NCBI GenBank assembly: GCA_001567355.1
Contig: JYNZ01000003.1
Coordinates: 274,124-338,123 of the forward strand
DNA from: a candidate division WS6 bacterium OLB20
GTDB taxonomy: Bacteria; Patescibacteriota; Dojkabacteria; B142; OLB20
Reading direction: 5' to 3'
DNA: 64,000 bases
The position numbers and the translations under genes were made by a program. Shown piece after piece: positions 2,323 to 28,230 of the stretch. Each line of letters opens with the position of its first letter. The stretch's first letter is position 1. The notes beneath the pieces were generated by a model that did not search any database, had not been told where the DNA came from, and saw only the letters and a program-made list of their open reading frames with translations.

Positions 2323-2343
2323 GCACGTGCTGTAACAAATAAA

Positions 2344-3561
2344 CTATTGTTTACCCAGTTCAGCGAGTGCCCGGCTGTCCTGTTCCTCGTATTCTTCGAC
2401 CTCAATATCAGGAACAATCGGGTCTTCTGCAGTAATATTCTTGCCTGACGGTGTCAGCCACTTCTGAAACACAAGCTGCAGGGTTGACCCGTCGCTCAGC
2501 GTGATCAGTCGCTGTTCAACACCTTTACCAACGGTTTTTGTACCGATAATCGTGGCGCGATCGTGATCCTGCAATGCTCCTGCAAAGATCTCGGAAGCAG
2601 ATGCACTGCCTTCATTGGTAATAACTGTTACCGGGACATCAAGCAGACGGCCCTGTCTGCGCACCGTATGTTCCACTTTGTTTCCGTTTCTGTCCTCTTC
2701 GCTGAAGATAAGTTTGCCCTGTTCAAGAAAATCGCCTAGGACGTATTCTACAGAGCTGACGTAACCTCCAGGATTATTGCGCACATCGACAACAACACCT
2801 TTGGGGTTTTTGCCTTTGAGCTCGGTTACAATTGCATCCCACTGGCTGTTAAAGGCCTCAACGGATTCTTCGGTAAACTTGTAGATCTTTATCTTGTAGT
2901 ATCCGTCACCGAGATCCTCGAGCATAATGTTGTCTAGGTCAATCTTCTCGCGTGTGATAGTTACCTCATAGCGCTCGGAGTTTTCGGGTCGGAACAAAGC
3001 CAGGACAACATCAGAACCTGCTTCACCCCGGATGCTGGCCGCAACTTCGTATACTGTTTTTCCCTGAACATCAGTACCATCGACTTCGAGAATAAGATCG
3101 CCAGGCTGCAAACCTGCTTTTTGCGCAGGAGAGCCGTCTATCGGACTTTCAACCACTGTAAATTCGCCCTCCTGGCGGAGTGTTGTGCCAATGCCTTCAA
3201 ATTCGCCCTTGTTGGAGCTTAGATATTGAGAGGTCTCTTCGGGGCTAAGAAAGGCCGTATAGCGATCATCAAGACCGCTTACGAGACCGCGTGCGGCTCC
3301 GTAAAGCAGCTGCTGCCCGTCAACATCCTTATCAATGTATTCAGAATCAATCATGTCCCATACCTCCCAGAGGAGTCCGACATCAACATTCTGGTGCTGA
3401 TCCTTGATGTCACCGCTCAGGTTATAACCTCCAGTGTTTCTTGGCTGCGAGCTGCTCTGCTGCAGATCTATGCGCCCCAGAAAAAAACCTCCCAGGAAGA
3501 ATATAACGATCAGGAAGAATCCGATCATAACTTTTGTTGCTGCTTTTGTCTGGCTGTCCAT
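2344..3561 (-). CDS. ctpA: carboxy-terminal processing protease (S41 family) with PDZ domain
   Basis: PDZ (GLQPGDLILEVDG), S41 core VVDVRNNPGGY and NEGSASASEIFAGALQDHDRATIIGTKTVGKG. Confidence 0.85.
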   Translation of the reverse strand: MDSQTKAATKVMIGFFLIVIFFLGGFFLGRIDLQQSSSQPRNTGGYNLSGDIKDQHQNVDVGLLWEVWDMIDSEYIDKDVDGQQLLYGAARGLVSGLDDRYTAFLSPEETSQYLSSNKGEFEGIGTTLRQEGEFTVVESPIDGSPAQKAGLQPGDLILEVDGTDVQGKTVYEVAASIRGEAGSDVVLALFRPENSERYEVTITREKIDLDNIMLEDLGDGYYKIKIYKFTEESVEAFNSQWDAIVTELKGKNPKGVVVDVRNNPGGYVSSVEYVLGDFLEQGKLIFSEEDRNGNKVEHTVRRQGRLLDVPVTVITNEGSASASEIFAGALQDHDRATIIGTKTVGKGVEQRLITLSDGSTLQLVFQKWLTPSGKNITAEDPIVPDIEVEEYEEQDSRALAELGKQ

Positions 3562-3566
3562 CGAAA

Positions 3567-5000
3567 TTATTTGGGCAATGTATTAGATATGGATACCGTT
3601 ATGAAGCCATCATCAGTGGCTGCGAGTAATTCGCTTACATCGGTAGTAGCACGTTCTATTCTAGCATACCCTTCTTCGGGATAGTAACTGAAAATACTGA
3701 CATGCTGTCCCTTATGCGGCTGATACTGCCGGATATCAATGGTATCCGAAACCTGATTGCGACCATTCATGGCCGGAAGCATCTCAGCACATAGCGTCTT
3801 CTGACCTGCGACGACATAGCGGCCGGTAAGCCTGTAGAGAAGATCAGTTATCTCGCTGTCTGCCTTTGTATCAGGTGCGGATACAAGGGCAAAACTGCAC
3901 CAGCGCCAGCGGGGATCGGTCGCCAGTGAATGTAACAACTGCGTATAGTCAGCCTCAAGCAGCAGGACACCGCTGATACTGTTTTCTACGATATCCTCAA
4001 GCGGGACGTCAAAACTGTTGAGATCAGAAGCGATCAGAATCCTGGGTCCGACAGTTTTTGTATACATATCTGCAACAACAGTTCCTTCAAACTGTTCTCC
4101 TGTGGATGTATGGACCGGTATCATCAGAAGATTTTCAGTCATCAGCCTGAATCCTTTTTTACCCGACGTACCGGTTATTTTACCGCCGAATGGTGCATAG
4201 AATTGCTGTGTGTGCTCGTTTTCGATCAGCAGAATACCCCTGTCTGCAAGACTCAGATCCACCCTGCCCTCACCTCCCGCTTTAACGGGTTTTGCCCACA
4301 GACCTCTGGCAACCGGCTCAAGTGCAAGTTCCTGCCCGGTTGTTACGTACTCTCCGTCACTGACCCGCAGGTACGGAATCAGGCTGTGCTCGGATACATA
4401 CATGCGCAGGTCAGTCGCGCTGAGAGATCCAATCTTTTCACCGGTTTTAACTGTTGAGCCCTTTGAGAGGTTGTGTGACAAAGCATATCTGCTGCCCGGA
4501 TAAATACCCGCCTCGGCAGTGACACCGGTAAGACATGACGGCACTGTCAGCACCCCCCGATCACCCTGCAGCATAAGGTTAAGCCCTGCTTCACGCCACC
4601 AGCGCTCATATCCTTCGGCACTGAGGCGCTCCAGATCCGGGAACGGATGGACAGCGCAATACACATGCCTGCGGACCGGCAGACTGTCCAGCGTATACCC
4701 TGAACCACCCAGATCAAACAACCCGCTTCTGTGCTCTTCAAGCAGCAGTGTTCTCTCAGTGCCTTCAGAATCGACTGCGGTTACTGCAGGAATACCTGAC
4801 CGTTTTCTGGCAGCAACTGAGCCCAGCCAGGTAAGCTGGGGTTGCAGCTCATCAGCGTGTACAAAAAAGAGCGGATTATCTTTTTCAGCTGCACTTCTGG
4901 CAAGCAGATACCACAGTCCGCGAGTGTCAATCAGGACATCACGGATGCTGTCTCCGGACACCTCGGCAATGACAGCAAGCACCAGTGCGGCATCAAGCAT
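3567..5000 (-). CDS. hypothetical protein with barrel-sandwich-hybrid (biotinyl/lipoyl-like) segment
   Basis: 477-aa ORF; segment VKTGEKIGSLS..YVTTGQELALEP resembles a hybrid-barrel motif; no confident family assignment. Confidence 0.5.
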   Translation of the reverse strand: MLDAALVLAVIAEVSGDSIRDVLIDTRGLWYLLARSAAEKDNPLFFVHADELQPQLTWLGSVAARKRSGIPAVTAVDSEGTERTLLLEEHRSGLFDLGGSGYTLDSLPVRRHVYCAVHPFPDLERLSAEGYERWWREAGLNLMLQGDRGVLTVPSCLTGVTAEAGIYPGSRYALSHNLSKGSTVKTGEKIGSLSATDLRMYVSEHSLIPYLRVSDGEYVTTGQELALEPVARGLWAKPVKAGGEGRVDLSLADRGILLIENEHTQQFYAPFGGKITGTSGKKGFRLMTENLLMIPVHTSTGEQFEGTVVADMYTKTVGPRILIASDLNSFDVPLEDIVENSISGVLLLEADYTQLLHSLATDPRWRWCSFALVSAPDTKADSEITDLLYRLTGRYVVAGQKTLCAEMLPAMNGRNQVSDTIDIRQYQPHKGQHVSIFSYYPEEGYARIERATTDVSELLAATDDGFITVSISNTLPK

Positions 5001-5593
5001 CCTGACCAGACCATTTCACCAGACAGAATCAGTGTGTCGCTGCCGCCGGCCAGACGTGCAAGTTGCGGCTGCAGCATAGTGCGCAGCAGGGCAAGATGCA
5101 GTCTGCGGGAGTGCTGATCCTGAGTTGTAACTGGAGCATCGAGTAATGTGCTTCGCACTTTAGAATACACCACCCCATCCCGCTTAAATACAGCAGCCGG
5201 CAGTTGCTCTGCAAGCGAGGCCAGATCTGCCGTATAAAAGTCCTCGCTCTCGGCTGTGATCACGCGGCACCCTGTAAAATCGAGCTCAAGATAGACCGCG
5301 TTTGTCTCGAGAGCGGCGAGCGCCTTGCGAACGCGTTCGGGGACAGGAGTTGATTTGCGCAGGGTATGCGACGCTGATGGCAGCAGGTCCTGTGCTGTCT
5401 TGCGTGTAAGCAGCTGACGGTCAGCATGCTCGTAATCAGTATGCTCTGCAAGACGGGAAGCCTGCCAGGGAATACGGAAACGCAAAAACCGGCTCACTGT
5501 GTAGCCGGTCGTTATGTCTCCTGTGAGAGAAATTTTTGTTCCAAAGAACTGTCCAAACGTTCTGAAAACATAGTCATGTGCAGACATGTTCAT
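4931..5593 (-). CDS. hypothetical protein (overlaps start of downstream ORF by 70 nt; possibly same gene split by a frameshift)
   Basis: 220-aa ORF, same strand, 70-nt overlap with 3567..5000. Confidence 0.4.
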   Translation of the reverse strand: MNMSAHDYVFRTFGQFFGTKISLTGDITTGYTVSRFLRFRIPWQASRLAEHTDYEHADRQLLTRKTAQDLLPSASHTLRKSTPVPERVRKALAALETNAVYLELDFTGCRVITAESEDFYTADLASLAEQLPAAVFKRDGVVYSKVRSTLLDAPVTTQDQHSRRLHLALLRTMLQPQLARLAGGSDTLILSGEMVWSGCLMPHWCLLSLPRCPETASVMS

Positions 5594-5620
5594 GGCGGGA
5601 CAGTTGTGACAGAACCAAGG

Positions 5621-5866
5621 TTAGATCAGCTCGTTGTAAGGCAGCAGTGCCATGTAACGGGCCTTTTTGATCTCTACAGCCAGTTTGCGCTGGCAGCGGG
5701 GGCTCACACCGGTTCGTTCCGGAGCAAGGATCCTGCCGCGGGTTGTCACAAACTTTTTCAGTCTGTAGACATCCTTGTAGTCAATCAGTTCTGTACGGCC
5801 GCGGAACGGGCACGATGGCTTGCGGAACCGTTTGTACTGCTTGCGTTTTTTGAGAGTCTTTGGCAT
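5621..5866 (-). CDS. rpsR: 30S ribosomal protein S18
   Basis: 81 aa; CPFRG..IDYKDV..L..F.T.RG.I..R..TG....Q.....IK.AR.MALLPY signature. Confidence 0.95.
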
Positions 5867-5876
5867 TGTTCTTCAG

Positions 5877-6368
5877 TTAAAATAGATCATCAGGGTCTGT
5901 ATCTTCATTCTGTGCAGCGGGGGCAACTGCAACCGGGGCTGCATCCTCCATGACACCTGCACCAGCCGACTGCTCGTCGTCCTCATCAGATTCGGAGCGT
6001 GCCGCATCGATTCCAACACCCTTTTTACCTTTGTCATCGAGCAGCTTCATATCATTGATCTTGATCTCGGTCTTGTACCGTCTGCCTCCGGCAGAGTCTT
6101 CCCAGGTGCGCGTCCTCAGTTCTCCCTCTATCCAGACCAGCATTCCTGTCGAAAGGATCTGTGCGCAGATTTCTGCAAGTTTGTTCCAGGCAACAACATT
6201 ATGAAACTCTGTACGTTCCTGCAGATTGCCGTTACTGTCCTTCCAGGAGTCGTTTGTGGCGACACCGAAGGTGCACACTGTTGCACCGTTGACGGTTGAG
6301 CGCAGTACAGGATTCCTGGTCAGGTTTCCAATAATCAGGACCTTGTTCAAAGATCGTGAAGTAGCCAT
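5877..6368 (-). CDS. ssb: single-stranded DNA-binding protein
   Basis: OB-fold SSB motifs (LNKVLIIGNLTRNP, FHNVVAW), acidic C-terminal tail ending DDLF; rpsF-ssb-rpsR context. Confidence 0.95.
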   Translation of the reverse strand: MATSRSLNKVLIIGNLTRNPVLRSTVNGATVCTFGVATNDSWKDSNGNLQERTEFHNVVAWNKLAEICAQILSTGMLVWIEGELRTRTWEDSAGGRRYKTEIKINDMKLLDDKGKKGVGIDAARSESDEDDEQSAGAGVMEDAAPVAVAPAAQNEDTDPDDLF

Positions 6369-6395
6369 TCAAGTCTTCTAATATGTAATAGAAAA

Positions 6396-6680
6396 TTATG
6401 AATCCTTCTTGGACAGCAGTGAACGCAGCACATCGCTGATCAGATTCAGCTCTTTCTGAAATTCTTCCACTTTGGAAGGATCGAGCTCCAGATCATAGAC
6501 GATGTAGTATCCCTCTTCGTGTTTTTCAATGGGATACGCAAGATGGCGTTTGCCCCATGCATCAACGTTGACTACAGAACCTTTCGCCTTTTTGACGAGG
6601 GTTTCAAGTTTCTTCTGAACCCCTGCTCTGATGTCTTCGGGAAGTAAGGGCTTTAGGATGACCATCAATTCGTACTTCAT
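6396..6680 (-). CDS. rpsF: 30S ribosomal protein S6
   Basis: MKYELMVILKP...GKRHLAYPI; ORF opens at 6803 but conserved S6 start is Met at 6680. Confidence 0.9.
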   Translation of the reverse strand: MKYELMVILKPLLPEDIRAGVQKKLETLVKKAKGSVVNVDAWGKRHLAYPIEKHEEGYYIVYDLELDPSKVEEFQKELNLISDVLRSLLSKKDS

Positions 6681-6803
6681 CGTAACCAAACCAATAACTA
6701 AATAAATATCTCGGGCAATAGAAATCTGCAGAGAATAATACCATACTTTATACAAAATGAGAACCGGAATACTCAAAGAATACGCCGGTTCTCTGCTCTG
6801 CAA

Positions 6804-7517
6804 CTAGTTTTTTACGATTGAGGTGTTGTATTCACCCTGCTCGATGATTGTAACCTGTCCGTTTGCTGACCTGACAAGAAGGATAACCTCGTTGTTAGGA
6901 AAGATGGCAATCACATCGCCGGACTGTGCGTTTTTGTAGAACTCGGCATCCTGGCTCTGCAGCTGTTTAGGATCAGTTACAACTGAAAGCTGCGGGTTGG
7001 CGTTTTCTGCGCTACCGATGACACCTGAGCTGACAGCTGCTTTTACAACGGAATCACGTAAAGCCTGCTGATTTCTGTTCAGGATTGTTCCGGGGCTGTC
7101 ACCTTCGTAGACGATTTCTCCAGTCGAGCGGCGGTAGATGACCATTTTATCGGAGTACCCGAGAACATAGTCACCGTCCTGTGCGTTTGCGTATACCTGT
7201 GCCTGGATTGAGTTTGAGCTGCGCAGGTTTTCAGCATCAGCAACAACACTCACTACAGGTGTCTCAAAGGGATTCACCTCGACCTGCTCGGCGACCTCCT
7301 CCATTACCTGCTGCGTCAGATTGCGCTGCTGGATATACGGAGGGCTGATGGTAAGAAAGATATTGATTACAAGTAGCACCGTGATCACTACCAGCATCGG
7401 TGGAACGATGTTGCTTGATAGCATTCCTTTCATCTTCTTAGGTGCCTGGGCTGAATGCTGGTTACCGAGAAATGTCGGGTTCTGATTGCCGCCAGCGGGC
7501 AGGTTCTGCTGTTGCAT
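6804..7517 (-). CDS. hypothetical membrane-anchored (signal-anchor) secreted protein
   Basis: 237-aa ORF with one N-terminal TM helix (IVPPMLVVITVLLVINIFL), no recognisable domain. Confidence 0.5.
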   Translation of the reverse strand: MQQQNLPAGGNQNPTFLGNQHSAQAPKKMKGMLSSNIVPPMLVVITVLLVINIFLTISPPYIQQRNLTQQVMEEVAEQVEVNPFETPVVSVVADAENLRSSNSIQAQVYANAQDGDYVLGYSDKMVIYRRSTGEIVYEGDSPGTILNRNQQALRDSVVKAAVSSGVIGSAENANPQLSVVTDPKQLQSQDAEFYKNAQSGDVIAIFPNNEVILLVRSANGQVTIIEQGEYNTSIVKN

Positions 7518-7608
7518 GAATCCTTGGAATAAAACGTTATGGATTTACTATAACGATAGAACATGAGTGAGTCAATTACGAACACCGGCCGACACCTAAT
7601 TAACTCAC

Positions 7609-7640
7609 AAAAAAAATCACGCACCGTGCGAGTGCGTGAT
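7609..7640 (-). terminator. rho-independent terminator (9-bp stem atcacgcac/gtgcgtgat followed by T8 on minus strand)
   Basis: Perfect inverted repeat 7616..7640 preceded on + strand by A8 (= T8 after hairpin on - strand). Confidence 0.6.
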
Positions 7641-8102
7641 TTAAAAGCAGTTGACAGCTTAGTCAGGGCTGTCAGCAAAAGACAGAACAAATAGTTACAA
7701 GTGCAAAGAAGTTAACCTATTATGTGATTCCTGTACTTCTGTGTCAAGAATTAGAACAGTAAATTTGTCAGGTTTTCGCTTTTTGTATTAATCTCTACAC
7801 CCCACAGCGCTATCCGTGAATTAAACCTGACAACACCTGTCCGTCTGCTAGAACAGGTCGATGTACAACTTTTATACTCAACAGGGAAAATCAGGGGGTT
7901 GCTGTCGGCCTGATATCATCACCACGCTGAACAGGTACAACATTGATAATGATATCCTCCTCCTCCCGGTAGATAACTGCCCGGTCTGAATAGACCAGCA
8001 GTTTGTCGCCATTCTGGGCAAACAGGTAAAAAGCGGGGTTGGCGATTCGTAACTGATCAATATCGGAGATTGTGGCTATCGTCGGCTGCTCGTCATCGGG
8101 GA

Positions 8103-8357
8103 TCAGAAGTTTGGCTGAGACTTCTCCTGAAGCGTGCGCTCAGGTTTTTGCTCCTCAGCACCCTTCACCTCTGCAGCCGGCGCGGGTGAGGTGATCAGAC
8201 CGTTTTCGATCGCTATATGATATGACAGGCCCCCTCCAAGAAAGACAATGACAAACAGAAGCAGTTTAAGAATGGTATCGACAGCACTTGCGGAACTGCT
8301 GTTTCTGGCTGTCTGGTATGATTGCCTTGGGACTTCTGCACCGTACATATCACGCAT
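8103..8357 (-). CDS. small membrane-anchored hypothetical protein (frame appears to continue after a -1/+1 shift down to 7891)
   Basis: 84-aa ORF with TM helix; adjacent alternative frame stays open to a TGA at 7891..7893. Confidence 0.45.
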   Translation of the reverse strand: MRDMYGAEVPRQSYQTARNSSSASAVDTILKLLLFVIVFLGGGLSYHIAIENGLITSPAPAAEVKGAEEQKPERTLQEKSQPNF

Positions 8358-8408
8358 GCTTAAGAGTTAGTGCTTCTACACTACACAGTGGAAGCAGGAC
8401 TGTCAAAG

Positions 8409-8735
8409 CTAATTGATGATGAAGTAGTTGAAGGTTGTATCAGTCTCGATCGCCTCCTCCGTCTCAATGGTAAAGCCCTGCCCGGGGACCAGATCAGTCA
8501 CACGTGAGCGTACAAACTGATCAGACGTGAGATGTACTGAAGATCCTGATGTTATCTGGATGTTATTTACACGGATGGTGCGTGTACCTGCCGGCAGCGT
8601 TACTTTTCCGGCTGCCTGGTTCTGTCCCTGTTCGATTGAGCTTGCGCTGAATGGTGAGGGAGTTGACCACCGCCTCATTGCCATAGAATACCCCGAGAAC
8701 ATCAAGATCACCTTCCACAACGAGCGCTCCGGCAA
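8409..8735 (-). CDS. probable frameshifted C-terminal continuation of ORF 8563..9645
   Basis: Same strand, 173-nt overlap in a different frame, beta-rich sequence. Confidence 0.35.
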   Translation of the reverse strand: MPERSLWKVILMFSGYSMAMRRWSTPSPFSASSIEQGQNQAAGKVTLPAGTRTIRVNNIQITSGSSVHLTSDQFVRSRVTDLVPGQGFTIETEEAIETDTTFNYFIIN

Positions 8736-9645
8736 TTACGAGCTGGTCAACATTAATACGCATTGTCGTGCTGCCCGGGTTGTCGTTAATTTCAAACAGG
8801 TTGTCTCCATTTGCCAGGCTGAATGACTCGATCTGAAGCGCTCCTGCCGCGTCACTGCGCATTCCGAACACATCGTTGCCGACATAGTAGCTGTCTACGT
8901 ACATCATGATCCGGCCAGTTACAAAGTCGGGAACAGCAACATCCTCATCATTATCAGGGTCTTCATCAGCGAGTGCCTGAGCCCGATAGAACCCTGTGAT
9001 GCGTTCTTTTTCAGCCTCTTCGTCAAAGGCAGCAAACACCTCGGATTCTATTCTCTCAACATACAGTTCTGCCTGATCCTCAGAAAGGTTGCCCTGATTG
9101 ACAGATGTCTCGATCAGCTCATAGGCGACTGATTTCTGCTGCGCAAAGAATGCGTTTACCGCCTCACTGTCACCGCCGGCAAAGAATGCCGGATCAAAAT
9201 CCTCCATGGCGCGTCCGAGAATCATTCCCTCTCCGTCAGCTTTCATTGCATAACCGGGTACATTTGCCGCTGTGAGGAAGTCACCGCGTCGTACAGGGCC
9301 GTTTTCATTACTGATACGGATCGCTGCATTACCCCTGCGGACAAGCGGCATTGCTGCCTCACCCTTCATCCATGCATCAATATGGTAGGCAGGGCTTGTA
9401 GCAATTACACCTGCCGTCAGGTTCCGGTTTGCCTCAGATGCCGGCACTATTGAAGCTTCAATATCGTTGAGCGCTGCAGCATCACTGGTATAAAGAACCT
9501 CGTCTGCAGCAACAATCTCGTTACTGATTTCCTCGGTAACAGTTGTTGTATTGGTAATGATGACTTCCGATGGCTGCTCTGCAATATACTCATCCGGGGC
9601 TGCTGTAGGCTGTGGAGTTGCTGCCGGCTGCTCGTCACCAAGCAC
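8563..9645 (-). CDS. hypothetical protein carrying a ~150-aa domain paralogous to the C-terminal domain of the upstream giant protein; GTG start, no signal peptide
   Basis: FLTAANVPGYAMKADGEGMILGRAMEDFDP aligns with ALSVSDVPGRAQKATGRGMVIGTALESWEP of ORF 9711..16142; ORF 8409..8735 looks like its frameshifted C-terminal continuation. Confidence 0.55.
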   Translation of the reverse strand: MLGDEQPAATPQPTAAPDEYIAEQPSEVIITNTTTVTEEISNEIVAADEVLYTSDAAALNDIEASIVPASEANRNLTAGVIATSPAYHIDAWMKGEAAMPLVRRGNAAIRISNENGPVRRGDFLTAANVPGYAMKADGEGMILGRAMEDFDPAFFAGGDSEAVNAFFAQQKSVAYELIETSVNQGNLSEDQAELYVERIESEVFAAFDEEAEKERITGFYRAQALADEDPDNDEDVAVPDFVTGRIMMYVDSYYVGNDVFGMRSDAAGALQIESFSLANGDNLFEINDNPGSTTMRINVDQLVIAGALVVEGDLDVLGVFYGNEAVVNSLTIQRKLNRTGTEPGSRKSNAAGRYTHHPCK

Positions 9646-9710
9646 TATCTCGGCCTGACCGTCACCGTCTGCGTCAAACTCAAACTTGCCGGATGCCTGA
9701 TTAAAGCGGA

Positions 9711-12700
9711 TTACGCCCTTGCCGTTAGATCCGACAGCCAGAGCATCGGTCCGGCATCAGGCTCGTACCATGTGTTATTAATCATCAGCAGTACCGTTGC
9801 CTGACCTGATGACGGTTCCCAGCTCTCGAGGGCTGTACCGATAACCATGCCTCTGCCGGTTGCCTTTTGAGCACGACCCGGCACGTCTGAAACGCTCAGT
9901 GCATCGCCTTTTGCAATTGGTTGTGACGTTGAGGCGATCTTGACCGGCACACGCCCTGCAAGAGCAAGGGGTTTGAAGTACCTGTAATCCAGTTCATTAT
10001 CAGGTGTGGAGGGGTTCAGCGTCAGGCCTGGATTTGTGGAGATAACACCGAGTACACGATCCCGCGATGAACTGTCGGACTTCTCGACAAGGAATCTGTT
10101 ATACAGATTTTCGTCAGAGTGTTCCACTGTTGATACGCTAACGATGTCACCTGCACTGATTGAAGTATCTGCTGTCTTTACGTATTCAGCGATGTCAGGT
10201 GTACCTGAGCCATTTGTCATATCACGCCATTCGTATGTACCACCGGAATTCTGTCTGCAGAGATAGATGGTGCCGTCCTCAGCCGCATCACGATTATAGA
10301 TCGTTGTACCGACTGTCGACGAATCACAGGTCGGCGCACTTCCTGTTGCAACATTTGCGTATACGATCCCTGCAGATGCACCCGTTATCACTACATTACC
10401 GCTGACAGTGATGTCGTCTGACAGCGCGAACCCGTCATTCGTGGAGTCCCAGCGGAAAGTCTCGGTATTAGTTCCGCCAAAGCTGAGTGTGATATCTCCT
10501 GCAGCTGTTGTGTCCTGTCCCGAATTAAGCATTACACCACCTGTAGCATCAAGACTGATATTGCCGGTCGAATCAATAAAGACATCTGTCTGGTCTGAGT
10601 AGATTTCAAACTCGCCACCCGTACCACCCCATACAGATGAATCAAGATCGATTGTAGCCCCGCCAGCGAGTCCAAGACCGGCAAAGAATTGTCCACTCCC
10701 TGCAGAAGATATCACCCAGGTCTGAATACCGGAAGAGTAACCGGTAACACCCCCTTGAGTTATATGAGTATAACTATCGCTTGGTGTATCACCTCCAAAA
10801 TAGCCCTGCCCCGTGTTATCAACCCTGAAACGTGTATTTCCGGCAACCTCTATATCAATCAGATTTGGATTACCCGCATTTGTCTCATTAATGGCAATAA
10901 TAGTATTTGCACCTGATGCAGTCTGTGCACTCCCCGGCTGCAACGTTACCGATGTATTGGCAGCAAGCAGATCAATACTTGTACTTCCATTGTAGAAGTA
11001 GAGATTTGTGCCGTTGTACCACAGATCCCCGTTTACAGGAGCAGACGGATCAACGCTGGCAGAAGGTGTTAGATTAATCTGTGCACTGCCAGCTGTTGGG
11101 GCCTTGATATCAAGCCAGGCATCAGGAGTTGCTACACCGATTCCAATCCGGTCTGCACTTCCGTCAGCGTAAAACAGGCTTGCATCTGTATCCCCTTCTA
11201 TGACAAAGTCAACCGAATCTCCGCTCTGATTGAACACAAAGCCGGAATTGTTTAGCTCCAGAATGTCAGCAGTTGTAAACTCAAGGCGGCCTGTGTTGCC
11301 GTTTGATGCATACAGGTCGATCTTGCCGTTGGCAGTTGCACCGGTACCGACACGCACCAGGTTGTCGCTGACATCGACACTGAATGAGCCTCCAAGACCG
11401 GTACCGCCAACTGCAAAGTCATCGGTGACACTTGTCAGGTAGGTTGCGCTTCCTGCATCAGTCAGGAATGAACTGAATCCGCAGTTTGTTTCGCTGGCAT
11501 CGCAGACCAGCTTGTCGCCCCAGTAAAGATCAGTAGTGGCAGGATTTGCCTGAGCTGATGTTGAAAGGTAGTTGTTCGCAGAACCGTTACCCAGATGGAT
11601 CAGATCTGCAACCTCAAGCCTGTCGTCTACTACTACGTAACCGGCATTGTTTGCGCTCAGTACAAGGTCCTCGTCACTGGCAAGGTCACCGGCCGTAATA
11701 TAGAACGGTGAATCGGACGTGATGCTGCTGGCTGTTGAATTAGTAAACACAAGGTCATTGGCAATCTGAACGTCACCGACACTGGCAAAGGTGGCGGGTA
11801 CATCAGCTCTGATACCGGTTGCAGAAATGCTGAAAATATCAGCTCCATTAATGTCGATATCAAGCAATGTACCGGTATATCCGCTGGCGGGGTTGATATA
11901 CAGAGCTGTTTCATTTGCTGCCAGCGCTGTACCAAGTGTTGTAGTACCGCTGAAGAGGAAGTCACCGTATGTCATTGCAGCTACATCATTGATATAGCCA
12001 AACTGGTTAGCTCCAAATCCAAACTCCAGACGGTCATCGGTCGTCTCATCATAACGGAAGAATGCATCGGCGTTAGTACCAAAGAACATGCTCTGGTCGT
12101 CCGCCAGAAGGACATTGCCACCTGAAAACTCCCAGCGGTCATCGGTTGTAAAGGTAATTGCACCTGTGTCACCGTCGCTTGCAAACATATTCAAGACACC
12201 GTTTGCAGTTGCACCGGTACCGATGCGGACAGTATTGGTGTCAACATCAACACTGAACGAAGATGCAAGGGTGCTGCCTCCGACTGCAAAATCATCTGCT
12301 GCCTGGGAAAGATACGTGATCGAACCCGAGTCTGTAAACAGCGAACCTCCTCCGAATGAAATACCGCAGTTTGCCTCACTTACATCGCAAAGCAGATCAT
12401 CACCCCAGTAAAGATCCCCGTTGGCACCTGCACCAACCGTACCGACACTGAGAACATCCGCAGTGTCAGTGCCAAGGTTGAGGTCACCGTCAATCTGCAG
12501 ATTACCGCTTTCATCAATACTGCCAACCTCTGTTGTCTCGCCATCATTATAGAAACTGATCCGGTAATCAGTATCACTGACGATATCAAGCAGAACGCTC
12601 ATATCTATCTCGGTATTGGATACATTGAAGTAATTGCCCCGCAGCACAAGCGCTCCGGAGTCTGCTGTAGCGCCTGTTGTCGAGTTATCAATAATGATGT

Positions 12701-15700
12701 CAAACGGTGCTGTACCCTGCACTACCACATTGCCGCCGGTAAACGTACCTGCTCCGCCAGTCACATTGAGCGCTCCACCAACAGTGAATGTATCATCAGT
12801 CTGCAACACATTCGTACCATTGTCGTACAAATTAGTGTCATTACCAATCACAATCCCGCCCGAGACACCGGTTGCCGAGGCTGTAAGCTGTCCCTGCACT
12901 GTGAGTGCATCAGGAGTGATAAGCAGGTTTGTTCCGCCATCGTATAGAAGCGTGTCGTTTCCGATTTCGATACCTGCTGAAGCACCGGTGGTGTTAAGCC
13001 TCAGCCTGCCTGCACTGACATCAAAGAAGAACGGCCCGGTAGTCAGATTAGATCCAAGCACAAAATCATCGGTAGTCTCAGTCAGATAGGTGAATGTTCC
13101 ACCATCAGTCAGAAGACTCGCAGCTCCAGCAAGCAGATCAACCGTAGAAGAACCGTCGTAGAAGTTAAGGTTGGTGCCGTTAAACCAGATATCACCCGAG
13201 TTCGGTGTTGTCGGATTTGTCCCCGGAGTAAAGTTGATATGGGCATTGCTGGCAGTTGATGCAGCGATGTCGAGGATGGCGGTGGGGGCAGTCACACCAC
13301 CAATCCCGACAAGGCCGCCGCTGTTTTGCAATACCAGATCACCATCACTTTCGATGGTAAGATCGTTTGTTGTTGTGTTATAGCTGATTGTGCCCTCGTC
13401 ACTGGTCGATGTACCGATATGCAGTGTTGCAGGACCAAGGTACAGGTCTCTCCAACGGCGGGCATTTGCGCCCAGGTCATATGTATCGTCGACACTAGGC
13501 TGAAGATCATCAGTGATTTCAAAGCTGTCCAGAGATGCTCTCCAGGCAAGTACCTCAGTGTTTGTACCACCGAAGTTAATTGCAATATCACCGGCACCGG
13601 TCGTATCAACATCCGTCTGGATATCGATATCGCCATCCGAGTAGATGTTACCTTCAACGCCAAGGTCACCATTGATAAAGGCGTCATCACCGCTCAAGGT
13701 AAATCCGCCACCGGCAATAGTTTCAGCAGTTGCTCCCAGCAGAAAATCGCCGCCACTTATATATACATCACCACCTGCAAATTCGAATGTGTCTGTATCC
13801 AGGAACTGGATTGATCCGTCATTTGTTGCATCACTCGCATAGAAAGCGAGCATGGGAGTATTGGCATCATTTTCGCCGTCTCCGATACGTACGACATTGG
13901 CTGACACATCAACACTGAATGGTGCCACGAGGGTATTACTTGCACCGATAGCCAGGTCATCCGAGGTCTGAGTCAGGTACGAAATCGTTCCGCCATCCGT
14001 AAACAGTGATGATCCCCCAAATGCAATGCCGCAGTTAGATTCGCTTACGTCGCAGATCAGGTCCTCACCCCAGTAAAGATCGCCGTTTGCAGCTGATGCA
14101 GGTCCAACACCCAGCACGTCAGCTGTATCGGTGCCGATATTGATGTTACCGTCCACCTGCAGGTTTCCGGACTGGTCAATGCTCGCTACTTCAGCTCCCG
14201 ACCCGTCATTAAGAAAACTCAGACGATAGTCAGTATCAGAGATGATATCCAGCAGAACCCGCATATCGATCTCTGTATTCGATACATTAAAATAGTTACC
14301 TCTTAAAATCATGGCACCGGAATCCGCTGTAGCGCCCGTGGTGGAGTTATCAATAATCAAGTCCTGTGCAGTGGAGTTCTGAATCAGGATGCCTCCGCCG
14401 GTAACATTAATACTGCCACCAGTAACATCAAGCGTATCGCTTACCACAACTGTTCCGCCGGATGACGACAGCGTCAGACTTGAGTTGCTGTCACTGATAC
14501 CGCTGTCTGCAATTGTGAGTCCGCTGCCAGCCACAATGTTGTTTTCGACATACAATGAATCGCCAACACCGAGCAGGTCGAGAATGTACATGTCATCTGC
14601 AGTTGCAGAGTCAAGTACAAATGATGTGTTCGTAAGCGGTGTGTTGTCACCAGAGTATGTTCCGATAATGACATCAAAGTCATTCTCAAATGTTCCTGTA
14701 TTGCTGCCGCTGTTAAACGTAAGCGACTCCCAGAGACCATAATCGCTGTTACAGCCGCTGCCGTTTGCAAGACATACCGTTTGATTGCCCCAGTAAAGCG
14801 GATTTGTTGCAGCGCCGCCTGCTGCAGAAGTTGCAAGCCGGTCATTTGAACCGGCCCCCAGAGACAGGATCGAGCCACCTACATTCATCGTGCCGCTTAC
14901 AGTCAGATTGCCGGTTGTACCCACATCAGTAAGTGCAAGAAGAACATTGGTACCATCACTCAACTCAAGGCGGTCATCAGTTGTTTCATCGTAGTAGATC
15001 TGAATGTCATCGTTTGTGCCGAAATTAAGCGAGATGTTGTCAACAATCCTCTGACTGCCACCGCTCCACTGCAGCAGATCCCCGATATATTCAAATCGAC
15101 CAGTGTCACCCGATGAAGAGTAGAAATCAAGCTTGGCATTACCTGATGATCCGTCTCCGATACGTGCAAGGTTTTCGCTCTCGTCAACGCTGAATGCGGA
15201 TACCAGCGTCGAAGAAAGCGACAGGTCAGATCCCGAAGAGGTCAGATACGTCACATTGGCATTAATTGTCCAGAGTCCGCCTCCACCTCCGGATGCAGCG
15301 TTGAGGGCATGGAGAATGGAGTTTGTGCCGGCAGGCAATGAAGTGTTTGAGCCGTCACTGAATGCGATGTCGCCGGTAAGTGAATCGTTAAACGTCAAAA
15401 CGGCTGAACTTGAAATACCGCCACCGTTTACGTTCAGGTCTCCGATCGTTGTGATATCACCTGTATTTGATACCGTGAACACATCACTGCTTGCCACCTG
15501 CATCTGGATCAGATTGGGAGTATTGGCACCGTCTTCGTTGAGATAAATAAGCGGAGTGGTTACGTTTCCGGTTGCCTGGATGGATGCCGGGGATAACTGG
15601 ACAAAACCGGATGAAGCAATACCGCCCAGCCGTTCCGCCTCATAGGCAAACGGTACAGTAGTAAGCTGCTTGCGTGAAAAAGTCTCAGCAGAAGAGAAAT

Positions 15701-16142
15701 CTCCGTTTCCGTCATCATCGAACTCGATTTCGACATACACACTTGAGTCATCCCCCCACGACAGACCTGACCCGCTACAGCTTCCCCCTGGTGATTCCCA
15801 GTTTCCACAGACAGAGTTGAGACTCAGACTGAATACACCCTCATAGTCACCAAGTTCGATATTTTCGTGTGGTTCGCGCCATAGCAGTGTCCCACCGACA
15901 GGGTCTGAGTAGATGCTGACTCGGAGGTCGCAGGTATCAGCACCGGCAGCTACACATGATGGTGTCCCCGTAATCAGGTTTGTACCATCAGGCCGGTTAA
16001 CGATCTTACCCTGGAAATTCAATGTGCTTGCTACAGCAGCACGGATATCAACGGGAGAGACAAGCACCACGAAACACAGCGCGAGCAGTGCAAAAATAGT
16101 TAAAAGTACCCTGTTTTTTCTAGTATGCGAGTTCAACTCCAT
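9711..16142 (-). CDS. giant (2143 aa) secreted/surface repeat protein with N-terminal signal anchor
   Basis: Signal/TM (LLTIFALLALCFVVLV); four copies of a module containing LYWG-x-D-L/V-C-D-x-S-E-x-N-CG, two of them extended (about 170 aa at about 75 to 80 percent identity); motif DLGANARRWRDLYLG reminiscent of phage tail-fibre proteins; sequence is Gly/Thr/Ser/Asn-rich. Confidence 0.85.
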   Translation of the reverse strand: MELNSHTRKNRVLLTIFALLALCFVVLVSPVDIRAAVASTLNFQGKIVNRPDGTNLITGTPSCVAAGADTCDLRVSIYSDPVGGTLLWREPHENIELGDYEGVFSLSLNSVCGNWESPGGSCSGSGLSWGDDSSVYVEIEFDDDGNGDFSSAETFSRKQLTTVPFAYEAERLGGIASSGFVQLSPASIQATGNVTTPLIYLNEDGANTPNLIQMQVASSDVFTVSNTGDITTIGDLNVNGGGISSSAVLTFNDSLTGDIAFSDGSNTSLPAGTNSILHALNAASGGGGGLWTINANVTYLTSSGSDLSLSSTLVSAFSVDESENLARIGDGSSGNAKLDFYSSSGDTGRFEYIGDLLQWSGGSQRIVDNISLNFGTNDDIQIYYDETTDDRLELSDGTNVLLALTDVGTTGNLTVSGTMNVGGSILSLGAGSNDRLATSAAGGAATNPLYWGNQTVCLANGSGCNSDYGLWESLTFNSGSNTGTFENDFDVIIGTYSGDNTPLTNTSFVLDSATADDMYILDLLGVGDSLYVENNIVAGSGLTIADSGISDSNSSLTLSSSGGTVVVSDTLDVTGGSINVTGGGILIQNSTAQDLIIDNSTTGATADSGAMILRGNYFNVSNTEIDMRVLLDIISDTDYRLSFLNDGSGAEVASIDQSGNLQVDGNINIGTDTADVLGVGPASAANGDLYWGEDLICDVSESNCGIAFGGSSLFTDGGTISYLTQTSDDLAIGASNTLVAPFSVDVSANVVRIGDGENDANTPMLAFYASDATNDGSIQFLDTDTFEFAGGDVYISGGDFLLGATAETIAGGGFTLSGDDAFINGDLGVEGNIYSDGDIDIQTDVDTTGAGDIAINFGGTNTEVLAWRASLDSFEITDDLQPSVDDTYDLGANARRWRDLYLGPATLHIGTSTSDEGTISYNTTTNDLTIESDGDLVLQNSGGLVGIGGVTAPTAILDIAASTASNAHINFTPGTNPTTPNSGDIWFNGTNLNFYDGSSTVDLLAGAASLLTDGGTFTYLTETTDDFVLGSNLTTGPFFFDVSAGRLRLNTTGASAGIEIGNDTLLYDGGTNLLITPDALTVQGQLTASATGVSGGIVIGNDTNLYDNGTNVLQTDDTFTVGGALNVTGGAGTFTGGNVVVQGTAPFDIIIDNSTTGATADSGALVLRGNYFNVSNTEIDMSVLLDIVSDTDYRISFYNDGETTEVGSIDESGNLQIDGDLNLGTDTADVLSVGTVGAGANGDLYWGDDLLCDVSEANCGISFGGGSLFTDSGSITYLSQAADDFAVGGSTLASSFSVDVDTNTVRIGTGATANGVLNMFASDGDTGAITFTTDDRWEFSGGNVLLADDQSMFFGTNADAFFRYDETTDDRLEFGFGANQFGYINDVAAMTYGDFLFSGTTTLGTALAANETALYINPASGYTGTLLDIDINGADIFSISATGIRADVPATFASVGDVQIANDLVFTNSTASSITSDSPFYITAGDLASDEDLVLSANNAGYVVVDDRLEVADLIHLGNGSANNYLSTSAQANPATTDLYWGDKLVCDASETNCGFSSFLTDAGSATYLTSVTDDFAVGGTGLGGSFSVDVSDNLVRVGTGATANGKIDLYASNGNTGRLEFTTADILELNNSGFVFNQSGDSVDFVIEGDTDASLFYADGSADRIGIGVATPDAWLDIKAPTAGSAQINLTPSASVDPSAPVNGDLWYNGTNLYFYNGSTSIDLLAANTSVTLQPGSAQTASGANTIIAINETNAGNPNLIDIEVAGNTRFRVDNTGQGYFGGDTPSDSYTHITQGGVTGYSSGIQTWVISSAGSGQFFAGLGLAGGATIDLDSSVWGGTGGEFEIYSDQTDVFIDSTGNISLDATGGVMLNSGQDTTAAGDITLSFGGTNTETFRWDSTNDGFALSDDITVSGNVVITGASAGIVYANVATGSAPTCDSSTVGTTIYNRDAAEDGTIYLCRQNSGGTYEWRDMTNGSGTPDIAEYVKTADTSISAGDIVSVSTVEHSDENLYNRFLVEKSDSSSRDRVLGVISTNPGLTLNPSTPDNELDYRYFKPLALAGRVPVKIASTSQPIAKGDALSVSDVPGRAQKATGRGMVIGTALESWEPSSGQATVLLMINNTWYEPDAGPMLWLSDLTARA

Positions 16143-16648
16143 ACAGATTTAGGCATTGCAAAAGGCTTTCAGACAAAGCAATTAAATACAGCAAAAATTT
16201 AATCGCTGAATATAGTGTAGGATAAATAAACTCTTAGTACAACAAGGAAAACGCTAAATTATTGTTGATAACTCCTTACTTTCCCGGAAACCATCGTGCC
16301 CACGTAACAGAGTGCCCGAAATTACTGAATCACCTTGCATAACATGAAGATCAACTAAAGCACGCCCGAATCGCACCACAGCTGTGGATGTCAGGGGGAT
16401 AGACGTATCCAGAACCTTTCCACAACCAATATCAGAATCAAAAGTAGACTGATAGAAATTATTCAGAATGCCTGAAATACAGCAATATACTGTTAACGGA
16501 AAAATCTGCGGAGAACGCCGCACAAAATGTGCACATAATTAGCCTGTCCATTACTAAGTATGCTGATGTGTGGGCGCTTCAGATATTATCCAGGCAATAA
16601 AAAAGGAGCGGGGAAACCGCTCCTTTAAAGAATCAAGACCTGAATTAA

Positions 16649-17747
16649 TCAGGCCCCGTGCCTGATGTTGAGTATGTCACCTTCTTTTACGACATAGTCC
16701 TTACCCTCGACACGCAACTTGCCTGCAGTCTTTGCACCCAGCCAGCCACCGGTTGCTACAAAGTCTTCGTACGATACGACTTCGGCCCTGATAAACTTGT
16801 CCTCGAAGTCTGTGTGGATCGCACCTGCTGCTTGCGGAGCCGTGCTGCCGGAACGTACACTCCACGCCCGGACTTCTTTTTTTCCGGCTGTAAAAAAACG
16901 TCATCAGACCCAGAACCGTATATGCCTCTCTTGTTAATTGCTCAAGGCCCGTATACTCGATACCAAGCTCCTGCATAAACTCACTGAGCTCATCAGGAGC
17001 CAGCCTTGAGAGTTCATACTCCTGTTTAATGTCAAGTGGAAGTACCCGCGCGGCATCAGGAAGACCAAGTCTTTGTCGCAACATCTTTTCGACCTCCGGA
17101 CCCGTCCTGGACCATCTTCCGTTAATCACATAGATTACCGGCTTATCTGTGAGCAGACGCAACTGTTTTCTGAAGGCAGACAGATCTCTGTCGTCAGCAT
17201 CTGCAGACACAGTAATCGCAAGTTGTCCTTTTTCGAGTGTTTCACGGATGTCGTGTATGAGCGCTAGATACTTCTCTCCACTGGAGTCCTTTCTGGCCTC
17301 ACGCGCTATCCTTGTCTGTTGCTTTTCGACAGTGTCGAGATCTTTCAGGATCAGTTCGGTCTCTATTGTCTCTCTGTCGCGGACAGCATCCACCGTACCG
17401 TCGACATGGACAACGTCATCATCAATAAAATCCCGGATGACGTGTACAATCGCATTAGTCATGCCAATATGGCCCAGAAAGTCGTTGCCAAGCCCTTCAC
17501 CCTCATGCGCACCCTTAACAAGCCCGGCAATATCATTAAACTCGACAACGGCGGGAACAATACTGTCCGTCTGAACGATATCTGCCAGCACCTGCAGCCT
17601 TGTATCAGCCACCGGAACCACTCCGACGTTTGGATCGATTGTACAGAACGGGTAATTCTCAGCCGCTATAGTCTGATTCGTTAGTGCGTTAAACAATGTG
17701 GATTTTCCAACATTCGGTAACCCGACAATTCCAAGTGAGAGAGACAT
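16649..17747 (-). CDS. ychF: ribosome-binding ATPase YchF (Obg-family GTPase), interrupted by a 1-nt frameshift in an A7/T7 run at 16891..16897
   Basis: G1 motif [18 protein letters not shown]; correct TGS C-terminus ([23 protein letters not shown]...[19 protein letters not shown]) is in another frame ending at 16649. Confidence 0.85.
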
Positions 17748-17757
17748 TTTAAAGGAT

Positions 17758-19164
17758 TTAAAGTGTAATGGATTGTTTCCAGTCCGGTATGTGAGCAGGA
17801 ACACCGTCATTTGTAAGAATACTGGCCAACGCTTCGCTACGCTCAGGCTCTGCGTGCACCAGGAACGCCTGCTTAAGTCGCTTCAGATCGTACAGTGACA
17901 GCCATTGCTGCAGCGTTGGCGAATCCGCATGGGCTGAAAACCCGCGAAGATAATGCACCCCCGCCCTAACCTGAACATCTTTTTTGTTTATGGAAATCTG
18001 ACTAGCGCCGTCAACCAGTGATCGTCCTGTAGTCTGCTCAGCCTGGAATCCGACGAAGACTAATGAACTGTTAGTATCCGGAGCGTGTGAGGCTATATGA
18101 TGCATGATCCTACCGCCCTCGGCCATACCGCTGCCAGCGATTATGATGCTTTTTGTTGCCGATGCCAGCCTTAGCGATTTCTTGTGGGTTCTGATATATC
18201 GAAGCTGATCGAAATCGAACCGTCTATTGCTCTGTCGCTTTGCAGTTCTAGGTTTCCTGCTGTTTTCCGCAGAATACTCGGTTATAACACCAAAATGGTC
18301 AGTACGGTCATTAAAGTATCCGGAGAACTGTGTGTAGATTTTAGTCGCCCGTATCGCCATCGGACTATCAATATAAACTTGAACATCTCCGTTAATGCGA
18401 CCTTGATCGAAGGCGATCGACAGAATTTCAAGTAGTTCTTGCGTACGATGTATAGCAAAGCATGGGATTATAACATTTCCATCACGTTCGGTCGTTTTGG
18501 TTATTACACTGATCAATTCATTCAACGTCTCGTTGCGATCCGGATGTTCAATGCCACCATAGAGTGACTCCATAGTTATGTACTCTGGAGAGAAGCTTGT
18601 ACCATTACTGAAGGTGTTAATGATTGTCTGATCAGCCCGACCGATATCACCCGAAAATAACAGCTGTCTTCCGCTGATTGTAATCTGCACGCTTGCTGCT
18701 CCAAGAATATGTCCTGCGGGGACAAAGCGAACCGTGATGCCCTCTGCCGGTTGAAAGTCCTTACCGAAGATCTCTGTACGGAACATTGTCAGAGACTTCA
18801 TTGCGTCACGCGTATCATAGAGGATACCCGGCAGCGTGTATGGCATTGCTTCTGAATACTCGAACGTGCCTTGTTTTTTTGCCTCCAGCTCCTGGATCTT
18901 GGCCGAGTCCAGCAGTACAAGCTCACTCAGTGCTGCTGTTGGTGGTGTCATATAGATAGGTCCTGCAAACCCCTCCCTGACCAGCCTTGGGATAAGTCCG
19001 CAATGATCCATGTGCGCGTGAGTAAGTATCACAAAATCTATTTCGGACGGGACAAAACCGAACGGCTCCTTGTTTCGATCCTCCACATCGGGTCCCTGAA
19101 ACATACCGCAGTCGATTAGTATTTTTCTGCTGTCATCCTCTAGTAAGTAACAGGAGCCGGTCAC
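17758..19164 (-). CDS. MBL-fold beta-CASP ribonuclease (CPSF73/RNase J-like)
   Basis: HAHMDHCG motif (ILTHAHMDHCG), beta-CASP and RNA-specificity region; 468 aa. Confidence 0.75.
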   Translation of the reverse strand: MTGSCYLLEDDSRKILIDCGMFQGPDVEDRNKEPFGFVPSEIDFVILTHAHMDHCGLIPRLVREGFAGPIYMTPPTAALSELVLLDSAKIQELEAKKQGTFEYSEAMPYTLPGILYDTRDAMKSLTMFRTEIFGKDFQPAEGITVRFVPAGHILGAASVQITISGRQLLFSGDIGRADQTIINTFSNGTSFSPEYITMESLYGGIEHPDRNETLNELISVITKTTERDGNVIIPCFAIHRTQELLEILSIAFDQGRINGDVQVYIDSPMAIRATKIYTQFSGYFNDRTDHFGVITEYSAENSRKPRTAKRQSNRRFDFDQLRYIRTHKKSLRLASATKSIIIAGSGMAEGGRIMHHIASHAPDTNSSLVFVGFQAEQTTGRSLVDGASQISINKKDVQVRAGVHYLRGFSAHADSPTLQQWLSLYDLKRLKQAFLVHAEPERSEALASILTNDGVPAHIPDWKQSITL

Positions 19165-19364
19165 GGTCCCTGCTGCGCCTAAAAAACGTTACCTGCATCC
19201 TGAATTGATATGAAATATGTAATATATCTTTACTGTGGATGTGCTGCCTTGCAGCTACTGCATCCGCAATTATAACACTGCTCCTGTTACGATACTACCG
19301 CGGACCTCTCAACCAACTGAACAAGTATCGACTATCCTGTACACATCATTCATGTGTAAGCTTT

Positions 19365-22262: not shown

Positions 22263-22510
22263 ACACAAATACTACATGTCTGATCCCAAAATTTACAGTC
22301 TGTTTGATGCGAAAATACGGTTTTTACCGTCACCACCGTGTCTGTATTCCTCTGAATCAGGACAGAAACATATCGCTGTATTACGGCAGATACAGAAAAA
22401 TATTACTCAGTGCGGTCGGGAATAATCAGACAGAGATGCAATTATCTCAGCGGTGTACGGACGGTTTGCGTAATAGTACGTGGATAAGTATTCGCGAATG
22501 TGGGGAATTA

Positions 22511-23433: not shown

Positions 23434-23471
23434 GATTATGAATCAGTAATAAGTATAAGTCGGGTAAACGA

Positions 23472-25053: not shown

Positions 25054-25079
25054 GGCGGGTGGGCATTTACGTCAAATAA

Positions 25080-25289: not shown

Positions 25290-25379
25290 TTAGAAACACC
25301 TCCTTGGTATTTTGGGGTTGCCCCCTTGCTAAGTCAGGCCGGGAAGCCTGAGAAAAATGTGAACCAATTATACCAGACT

Positions 25380-27002: not shown

Positions 27003-27037
27003 CTATAGTAGCATGCAGCAGGGAACGTGGGAAACCG

Positions 27038-27592: not shown

Positions 27593-27598
27593 AGCAGA

Positions 27599-28206: not shown

Positions 28207-28230
28207 TACAGTAATTCTAAAAAGTAGAGC

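Follow-up and report, generated by a model that had tools for sequence, protein, structure and literature searches.

Does a giant open reading frame (ORF) end where its annotation ends, or do the smaller frames behind it belong to the same gene? The question is raised by the minus strand of a 64,000-nucleotide stretch of DNA (the window) from candidate division WS6 bacterium OLB20, hereafter OLB20, a member of the Dojkabacteria in the candidate phyla radiation (CPR). Here a giant ORF is followed by two smaller ones, ORF2 and ORF3. An earlier reading of the letters alone (the original prediction) had left two options, namely two to three paralogous secreted proteins or one protein of about 2600 amino acids (aa) broken by indels. 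The giant ORF, ORF2 (8563..9645) and ORF3 (8409..8735) are one gene of ~2,577 codons, since coding potential, start sites, distant homologues and orthologues agree, the orthologues being decisive. The reading that we favour, with a probability of roughly 0.88, is that this one gene encodes a secreted or anchored fibre protein of ~2,577 aa and is split by two single-base indels, most probably uncorrected Ion Torrent errors. The coordinates of the features are collected in Table 1.

One gene across three open reading frames

The strongest evidence for a single gene came from two relatives. In the complete genome of the Dojkabacteria member cMAG.21 (CP129475.1), a single ORF of 2501 aa takes the place of the three OLB20 ORFs, and the joined OLB20 protein aligned with it end to end in one high-scoring segment pair (query 11-2574, subject 8-2501) at 62.9% identity. 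The order of genes is the same in both genomes: RNase J-like, ychF, giant, p161, p240, rpsF, ssb, rpsR, p632, S41 and HtrA. The second relative, P0034 (3183 aa, GCA_046753765.1), was recovered by a whole-library profile search. It is 65% identical to the giant over the first 1,900 aa, is unbroken across the equivalents of both junctions and lies in a syntenic locus (giant, small ORF, 234-aa ORF, rpsF, ssb, rpsR, 690-aa ORF, S41 protease). The orthologous locus in related genomes, which the original prediction had proposed as a check, thus holds one uninterrupted ORF at the syntenic position in two Dojkabacteria genomes. More distant homologues behave in the same way. P0001 aligned with ORF2 and ORF3 at 31% identity over 377 columns, the match continuing across junction 2 as far as the common C-terminal ...IIN, and P0006 likewise aligned through junction 2 to the C-terminus. 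JGI metagenome contigs were also scanned for close relatives of ORF2, and none was found there.

The layout of the reading frames matched the original prediction in all its coordinates. The C-terminal domain of the giant does recur in ORF2: a single BLASTP comparison of the last 262 aa of the giant with the extended ORF2 gave 32% identity over 88 aa (E = 1e-13), and the shared segment includes the GDALSVSDVPGRAQKATGRGMVIGTALE / GDFLTAANVPGYAMKADGEGMILGRAME stretch quoted at the outset. The GTG start of ORF2 and its lack of a signal peptide were both confirmed. Its frame, which is -1 relative to the giant, is already open ahead of the giant's stop at 9711, as had been noted; it opens at 9756, right after a TGA at 9759..9757 that corresponds to the stop placed near 9757. 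The second frame change, between ORF2 and ORF3, is also present, with ORF3 back in the frame of the giant.

Coding potential was followed with a log-odds score of codon usage, trained on ~40 genes from elsewhere in the window. The best coding frame was frame 0 down to ~9750, frame -1 from ~9750 to ~8637 and frame 0 again to 8411, with change-point optima at 9748..9753 and 8634..8641. The frame-0 score is negative past ~9750, and the final 12 codons of the giant (PMLWLSDLTARA) are out-of-frame read-through. The -1-frame score peaks in 9715..9626 (+25.2 bits), a segment that spans the 'intergenic' 9710..9646 together with codons upstream of the ORF2 GTG. At its other end ORF2 terminates in 18 non-conserved, out-of-frame codons, while the conserved sequence carries on in the other frame. 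The last 73 codons of the reconstructed gene (third frame) carry no annotation in the record. These frame switches, together with the two single-ORF orthologues, support the option of a single protein of about 2600 aa that indels have broken up. The option of two to three paralogous secreted proteins fails at the same point, the orthologues running straight through both junctions.

Each junction can be mended by changing one base. At junction 1, where the orthologues read ...WFDPSDENSIAIGSNGYGVIRFNPETGKFEFDADGDG... and ...GTLYLGESGKGLISFNEETGTFEFDSNGDG... and the -1 frame of OLB20 reads ALAVGSNGKGVIRFNQASGKFEFDADGDG, one base added after GCCGG (9751/9750, GCCGG^ACC) gives ...WYEPDAGTDALAVGSNGKGVIRFN..., in agreement with ...WFDPSDENSIAIGSNGYGVIRFN... 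of cMAG.21 and ...GTLYLGESGKGLISFN... of P0034. The orthologues read RKLSLGTGQNQAAGK... and RKINVGTEDHQAAGE... at junction 2, where the two frames of OLB20 give RKLNRTG and QNQAAGK. Deletion of one G from the GGG yields RKLNRTGQNQAAGKVTLPAG, which agrees with RKLSLGTGQNQAAGKAVISAG of cMAG.21 and RKINVGTEDHQAAGEVTLKGG of P0034. With both repairs made together, a single ORF of 2577 aa without an internal stop is obtained.

Table 1. Features of the fibre gene and of other frameshifted genes in the window (aa numbering is that of the giant).
Feature	Position	Strand	Description
Whole reconstructed gene	8409..16142	minus	giant, ORF2 and ORF3 with two one-base repairs; 2577 aa
Giant ORF	16142..9711	minus	2143 aa; ATG start; hydrophobic N-terminus; GenBank KXK26642.1
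ORF2	9645..8563	minus	360 aa; GTG start; GenBank KXK26641.1 (exact-sequence look-up)
ORF3	8735..8409	minus	in the frame of the giant again
Junction 1	9748..9755	minus	shift from frame 0 to -1 inside GCCGGACC; lacks one base, placed most simply after GCCGG
Junction 2	8626..8628	minus	GGG with one G in excess; frame -1 to 0
Middle segment, -1 frame	8629..9747	minus	linker, module 2, acidic helical insert and beta-rich stretch; partly KXK26641.1
Signal peptide or membrane anchor (MELNSHTRKNRVLLTIFALLALCFVVLVSPVDIRA)	16035..16142	minus	predicted from sequence; conserved NFQGK...N-terminal fibre region follows
Module 1	9750..10235	minus	putative phi29 gp12-type (Peptidase_G2-like) auto-chaperone domain, aa 1970-2131
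D1983 and E1986 of the TP/DIAEY motif, module 1	10196..10185	minus	invariant D14/E17 in alignments A3 and A4
Module 2	9130..9570	minus	second copy of the same domain; degenerate cleavage motif
C-terminal domain	8412..8625	minus	ends ...FNYFIIN; remotely K1-lyase_C-like (PF24146)
ychF frameshift	16888..16901	minus	T7 should be T6; another frame holds the conserved last 80 aa, which are 69% identical to cMAG.21
CCA-adding enzyme frameshift	20625..20640	minus	T7 run (plus-strand A7 at 20630..20636); 81-aa and 405-aa products KXK26646.1 and KXK26645.1
dnaX frameshift	24630..24639	minus	KTLEEPP motif broken by an A6 run in place of A5
tsf (EF-Ts) frameshift	27758..27765	minus	truncated at 160 aa; AAG TCT AC should read AAG TTC TAC (T to TT)
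p161 frameshift	7894..8357	minus	84-aa ORF 8103..8357 (KXK26640.1) is the N-terminal half of a ~162-aa protein; rest at 8121..7894 in the other frame
p690 frameshift	3567..5593, junction ~4998..5008	minus	hypothetical ORFs of 218 aa (KXK26635.1) and 471 aa (KXK26634.1)

Probable sequencing errors and competing explanations

OLB20 was sequenced exclusively on the Ion Torrent PGM, and the authors of that work describe persistent frameshifts as common in Ion Torrent data and report fixing them by script and manual curation (PMC4821891). Comparison with cMAG.21 and with Pfam models revealed at least 8 one-base frameshifts in the first 28 kb of the window, including the two in the fibre gene. Repair of dnaX gives a 526-aa DnaX that matches DNA_pol3_delta2 in a single stretch (positions 2-158 of 161), and repair of tsf gives a 202-aa EF-Ts with a single EF_TS match (positions 52-202 of 204). 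When shortened to T6, the run in ychF yields a 365-aa YchF that regains YchF-GTPase_C, absent before, at positions 1-82 of 84; the same change in the gene of the CCA-adding enzyme yields 483 aa with PolyA_pol in one stretch (positions 2-126 of 126). The C-terminal half of p161, at 8121..7894, is 67% identical to the 161-aa protein of cMAG.21. p690 is a single ORF of 632-690 aa in both relatives, and OLB20 changes frame between GEMVWS and RMLDA. Split products still stand in GenBank, for example KXK26646.1/KXK26645.1 and KXK26635.1/KXK26634.1. A living genome cannot be in this state, with at least 8 frameshifts within 28 kb and essential genes among those hit several times over, and the frameshifts are very probably a sequencing artefact.

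Two further split genes were seen in the gene tables. A PBP2-like transpeptidase at ~32629..34509 (minus) is in pieces of 452 and 144 (plus 49) aa, and ComEC at 57335..59607 (minus) is divided between a piece of 458 aa with DUF4131/Competence and one of 276 aa with Lactamase_B. Both splits are probably more frameshifts of the same type.

Several observations weigh against sequencing error. Neither junction has a long homopolymer (GG or A at the first, GGG at the second). The Logan contig SRR29904084_51680 (89 kb) reproduces window positions 1711..63271 (61.5 kb) at 100% identity, with no mismatch or gap and with all the frameshift sites included. The same 2143-aa and 360-aa products are present in the Logan data, the 360-aa product also from SRR29904083, and should these two runs prove independent and from a platform other than Ion Torrent, the indels would be real. 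Finally, no exact match to the repaired giant, to the joined ORF2 and ORF3, or to the repaired YchF and CCA-adding enzyme was found in a collection of 15 billion proteins.

A first alternative is that the frameshifts are genuine in the OLB20 population; the fibre would then be truncated 12 codons past the first of its auto-chaperone domains, with ORF2 and ORF3 left as the tail of a recently inactivated pseudogene. Both frameshifts are identical in the Logan assemblies of the two SRA runs, whose accessions are in the 2024 range, and in a third contig, and the collection holds no intact version of the strain's protein. The truncated giant, moreover, keeps its first domain complete through ...NNTWYEP. 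Identity to the orthologues is 61% after junction 2 and 63% before junction 1, which fits a very recent event, but equal conservation on either side of the breaks is predicted by errors too. The same contigs are also broken in dnaX (at KTLEEPP), tsf, ychF and the CCA-adding enzyme, and no cell can carry all of these lesions. The Logan contig therefore almost certainly comes from the same reads or the same chemistry, and its agreement is not independent proof if the reads are shared or the platform is the same. The Logan contigs are probably not independent of the deposited OLB20 sequence, and the contig was dropped as independent read support for the stops. Given also the density of the frameshifts, a one-base repair that mends every tested case, and Ion Torrent-only data with acknowledged persistent frameshifts, we consider genuine mutation unlikely.

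Less probable again is the separate translation of two or three paralogues, namely the giant, a 360-aa protein from the GTG at 9645 and a third, small product that would begin at 8735 or 8702. Possible starts exist in the in-frame GTG at 9645 and in TTG and ATG codons at 8735..8678; the 360-aa product is annotated in GenBank, and the domain copies are only 32% identical, as old paralogues would be. However, the 37 codons upstream of the GTG (ALAVGSNGKGVIRFNQASGKFEFDADGDG) are coding in the ORF2 frame and are conserved as internal sequence in the orthologues. No ATG, GTG or TTG occurs in this frame from the stop at 9757 to 9645. Searched by itself, the 37-aa stretch gave weak short matches within the giant and nothing more, and it was the orthologues that provided support. 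True starts in the OLB20 genome are ATG codons behind an AT-rich leader and without a Shine-Dalgarno motif, and the GTG of ORF2 lies within GC-rich, coding-like sequence. A Shine-Dalgarno test is uninformative at ORF2 because genes of this genome lack such motifs. The sequence at the start site gives separate initiation no support. The out-of-frame end of ORF2, with its real continuation in the other frame, also speaks against paralogues, as do the missing signal peptide and the single ORFs of both orthologues. The family often has the domain repeated in tandem within a single chain: two or three copies occur in 83 of the 163 domain-carrying homologues retrieved, and P0002 and P0005 have two copies per chain.

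Programmed recoding, with the ribosome shifting -1 near 9750 and +1 near 8630 to make the full-length protein from the sequence as deposited, is the least probable of all: the two shifts do compensate and the full-length frame is otherwise intact, but no X_XXY_YYZ heptamer or other known shift site is present in 9756..9714 or ~8650..8615, the orthologues encode the same residues in frame and do not conserve the shift sites, and similar one-base breaks are scattered over unrelated genes in unrelated sequences. One fibre gene interrupted by two sequencing errors thus remains the preferred reading, and the protein is treated as continuous below.

A duplicated auto-chaperone domain behind a long fibre

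The repaired protein consists of an N-terminal signal or anchor, ~1,950 aa of internally repeated fibre modules, two tandem auto-chaperone copies (modules 1 and 2) and a K1-lyase_C-like end domain. Copies of the shared domain were aligned in two sets, A3 and A4; the alignment for AlphaFold2 had no cMAG.21 row. The aspartate and glutamate of the D-x-A-E motif (D14 and E17) are invariant in the 46-47 aligned copies, and the 47-copy alignment shows a conserved core, PVALxGRVPVKV...ENGxIxxGDxLTxSxxPGxAMKAT. A search with the module profile found 23,858 cluster representatives at E <= 1e-3. When profile A3 was compared with PDB sequences by hmmsearch, it matched phi29 gp12 as 3gqh_A (E = 7.1e-5), 6qz9_A (E = 1.1e-4) and 3suc_A (E = 4.3e-3). 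The alignments to gp12 run from DFAEYFE onward, which in 3gqh_A is residue 1, the start of the released fragment; in full-length gp12 (6qz9_A) the match is at residues 687-743, and 3suc_A was matched at its DFAQYFE variant. The Peptidase_G2 model PF11962 was matched at E <= 0.01 by 13 of the 47 copies (best 1.1e-8), with P0017 just over the gathering score (25.3 vs 25 bits), and other copies match phage cement or head-fibre models.

The AlphaFold2 model of module 1 (predicted local distance difference test score, pLDDT, 88.1; predicted template-modelling score, pTM, 0.84) pointed in the same direction. The first two Foldseek matches in the PDB were 3suc, the 'pre-mature' form of gp12 (E = 8.5e-5), and 3gqh_A (E = 1.6e-4), both at probability 1.00; the template-modelling (TM) scores of 0.54-0.56 and root-mean-square deviations of ~5 A denote moderate similarity. 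Phage cement and decoration proteins followed. The suggestion of a tail-spike or intramolecular-chaperone-like C-terminal domain in the original prediction was therefore a good one, profile and predicted fold both matching phi29 gp12. As judged by these two lines, the shared domain is a divergent phi29 gp12-type (Peptidase_G2) auto-chaperone domain, present in two tandem copies.

Counting against this assignment, the window's own domains reach no Pfam threshold, and PF11962 gave no match to them at E <= 1. Pfam and NCBIfam scans of the three ORFs returned weak K1-lyase_C and Bdello_MAT_N matches and almost nothing else, and a phmmer search of the giant's C-terminus against PDB sequences found no match, gp12 being reached by the family profile only. 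A literature search on Peptidase_G2 in CPR bacteria found nothing useful apart from the tail-spike auto-chaperone paper.

Module 2 was found by jackhmmer at residues 26-172 of ORF2 (E = 1.3e-29) and has diverged at the motif. In OLB20 it reads EISNE where DxAE(Y/F) is expected (MPLVRRGNAAIRI instead of RPVALAGRVPVKV). The motif is lost in cMAG.21 (VESTNE) and kept in P0034 (DVAEE). An acidic helical stretch of ~95 aa is inserted in module 2 just before the final strand (GRIMMYVD, equivalent to TVLLMINN). Pseudogene decay after the frameshift was considered as the cause of the degeneracy and rejected, the intact cMAG.21 orthologue being equally degenerate; on the aligned sequences, the degeneracy is a matter of lineage divergence. 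In two distant members of the family, P0004 (aa 195-593) and P0015 (aa 38-81), an intein (PF14890 Intein_splicing) is found just upstream of the G2-like domain.

The two ends of the protein resemble other fibre proteins remotely. At the N-terminus, aa 29-108 matched the NCBIfam model Bdello_MAT_N (NF053851) with 25.9 bits and E = 7e-6, below the cutoff of 60. Like the Bdellovibrio mosaic adhesive trimer (MAT) fibres, the OLB20 protein is a long, repetitive, phage-fibre-like bacterial protein, but at 25.9 vs 60 bits it falls outside that family, belongs to another taxon and has other C-terminal modules. CPR bacteria, like Bdellovibrio, live on other cells. At the C-terminus, ORF3 matched PF24146, the C-terminal domain of a K1 capsule-specific polysaccharide lyase (a Klebsiella phage tail-spike depolymerase), with E = 1.5e-4 and 21.7-22.6 bits, under the gathering score of 27. 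Like ORF3, 9 out of 10 C-termini from the family match PF24146 and no other model; these matches cover almost all of the model and score 17.3-26.0 bits, again below 27. ORF3 aligns to the extreme C-termini of P0001, P0006, P0003, P0009 and P0019, and by this alignment its last 70 aa are the canonical C-terminus of the family. All scores in this comparison, 17-26 bits, are thus under the threshold of the lyase family, and upstream of the OLB20 end domain neither a lyase nor a beta-helix catalytic domain was found.

Proposed maturation and significance

The C-terminal domain of phi29 gp12 (pre-neck appendage or tail spike; MEROPS G2; PF11962; 3GQH, 3SUC, 6QZ9) is needed for folding of the trimer and is later cleaved off (PMC3357383). 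In both proteins a long fibre or spike carries the domain at its C-terminal end, the motifs correspond (DFAEYFE in gp12, DIAEYVK in OLB20) with D and E invariant, and gp12 is the best fold match in the PDB. In gp12 the residues at the scissile site are D692 and E695, and the uncleaved 'pre-mature' structure 3SUC is that of the E-to-Q variant. The differences are also clear. The OLB20 domain is ~15% identical to that of gp12 and under the Pfam threshold; its gene lies on a cellular CPR chromosome between ychF and rpsF, in a context of tRNAs, rpsF-ssb-rpsR, ychF, cysS and topA, and not in a phage; and the domain is duplicated in tandem, with ~450 aa more beyond the first copy and a second copy that lacks the D/E motif. 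A second comparison is with the endosialidase and T5 pb1-type chaperone (Peptidase S74), which likewise acts from the C-terminus as a chaperone of trimerisation and is then lost by autoproteolysis (PMC3357383, PMC4690869). Unlike in that system, the best fold matches of the OLB20 domain are gp12 and phage cement proteins, and scans of the window ORFs and of the domain copies gave no Pfam match to S74.

By analogy with gp12, the C-terminal block would nucleate folding of the fibre trimer after export. Module 1 would then cut the chain just before D1983 (TP/DIAEY), freeing a C-terminal block of ~595 aa that comprises the body of module 1, module 2, the coiled-coil insert and the end domain. The sequence data establish that the gene is continuous, that the domain is homologous to that of gp12 and that its D and E are conserved; trimerisation and cleavage are carried over from gp12, and the 2,577-aa protein presumably serves as a surface fibre.

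Other features of the window concern different genes. At 44004..50792 (plus), ATP-grasp, RimK-like and Mur-ligase genes lie behind a 7TM_transglut membrane protein, an arrangement that resembles a peptide-ligase operon. Tandem genes of the nucleoside-diphosphate-kinase (NDK) family at 55405..56648 (minus) encode products of 202 and 204 aa, both longer than typical NDKs. A further large surface protein begins within 62201..63931 (plus) and runs off the window; its Ig-like matches (Big_3_3, Bact_surface_Ig-like) are faint.

The main value of these results is a correction of the record: KXK26642.1 (2143 aa) and KXK26641.1 (360 aa) are pieces of the same gene. The OLB20 record holds many uncorrected one-base indels, and its gene counts, pseudogene calls and protein families should therefore be used with caution. 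The gene itself is unremarkable and adds one more member to a large, uncharacterised family of fibre proteins from CPR and other bacteria that have phage-type auto-chaperone ends. The repaired protein does show that Dojkabacteria retain, at a conserved place in the chromosome, a giant fibre ending in a tandem phi29 gp12-like auto-chaperone module, an architecture shared across that family. A more specific role can be put forward only tentatively. The repaired protein may be a chromosomally conserved surface fibre of Dojkabacteria, always encoded between ychF and rpsF, with a domesticated phage tail-spike auto-chaperone block made up of a competent G2-type domain, a degenerate copy bearing a coiled coil and a K1-lyase_C-like cap. 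About 595 aa might then be shed after trimerisation, and the mature fibre might attach the presumably episymbiotic CPR cell to its host.

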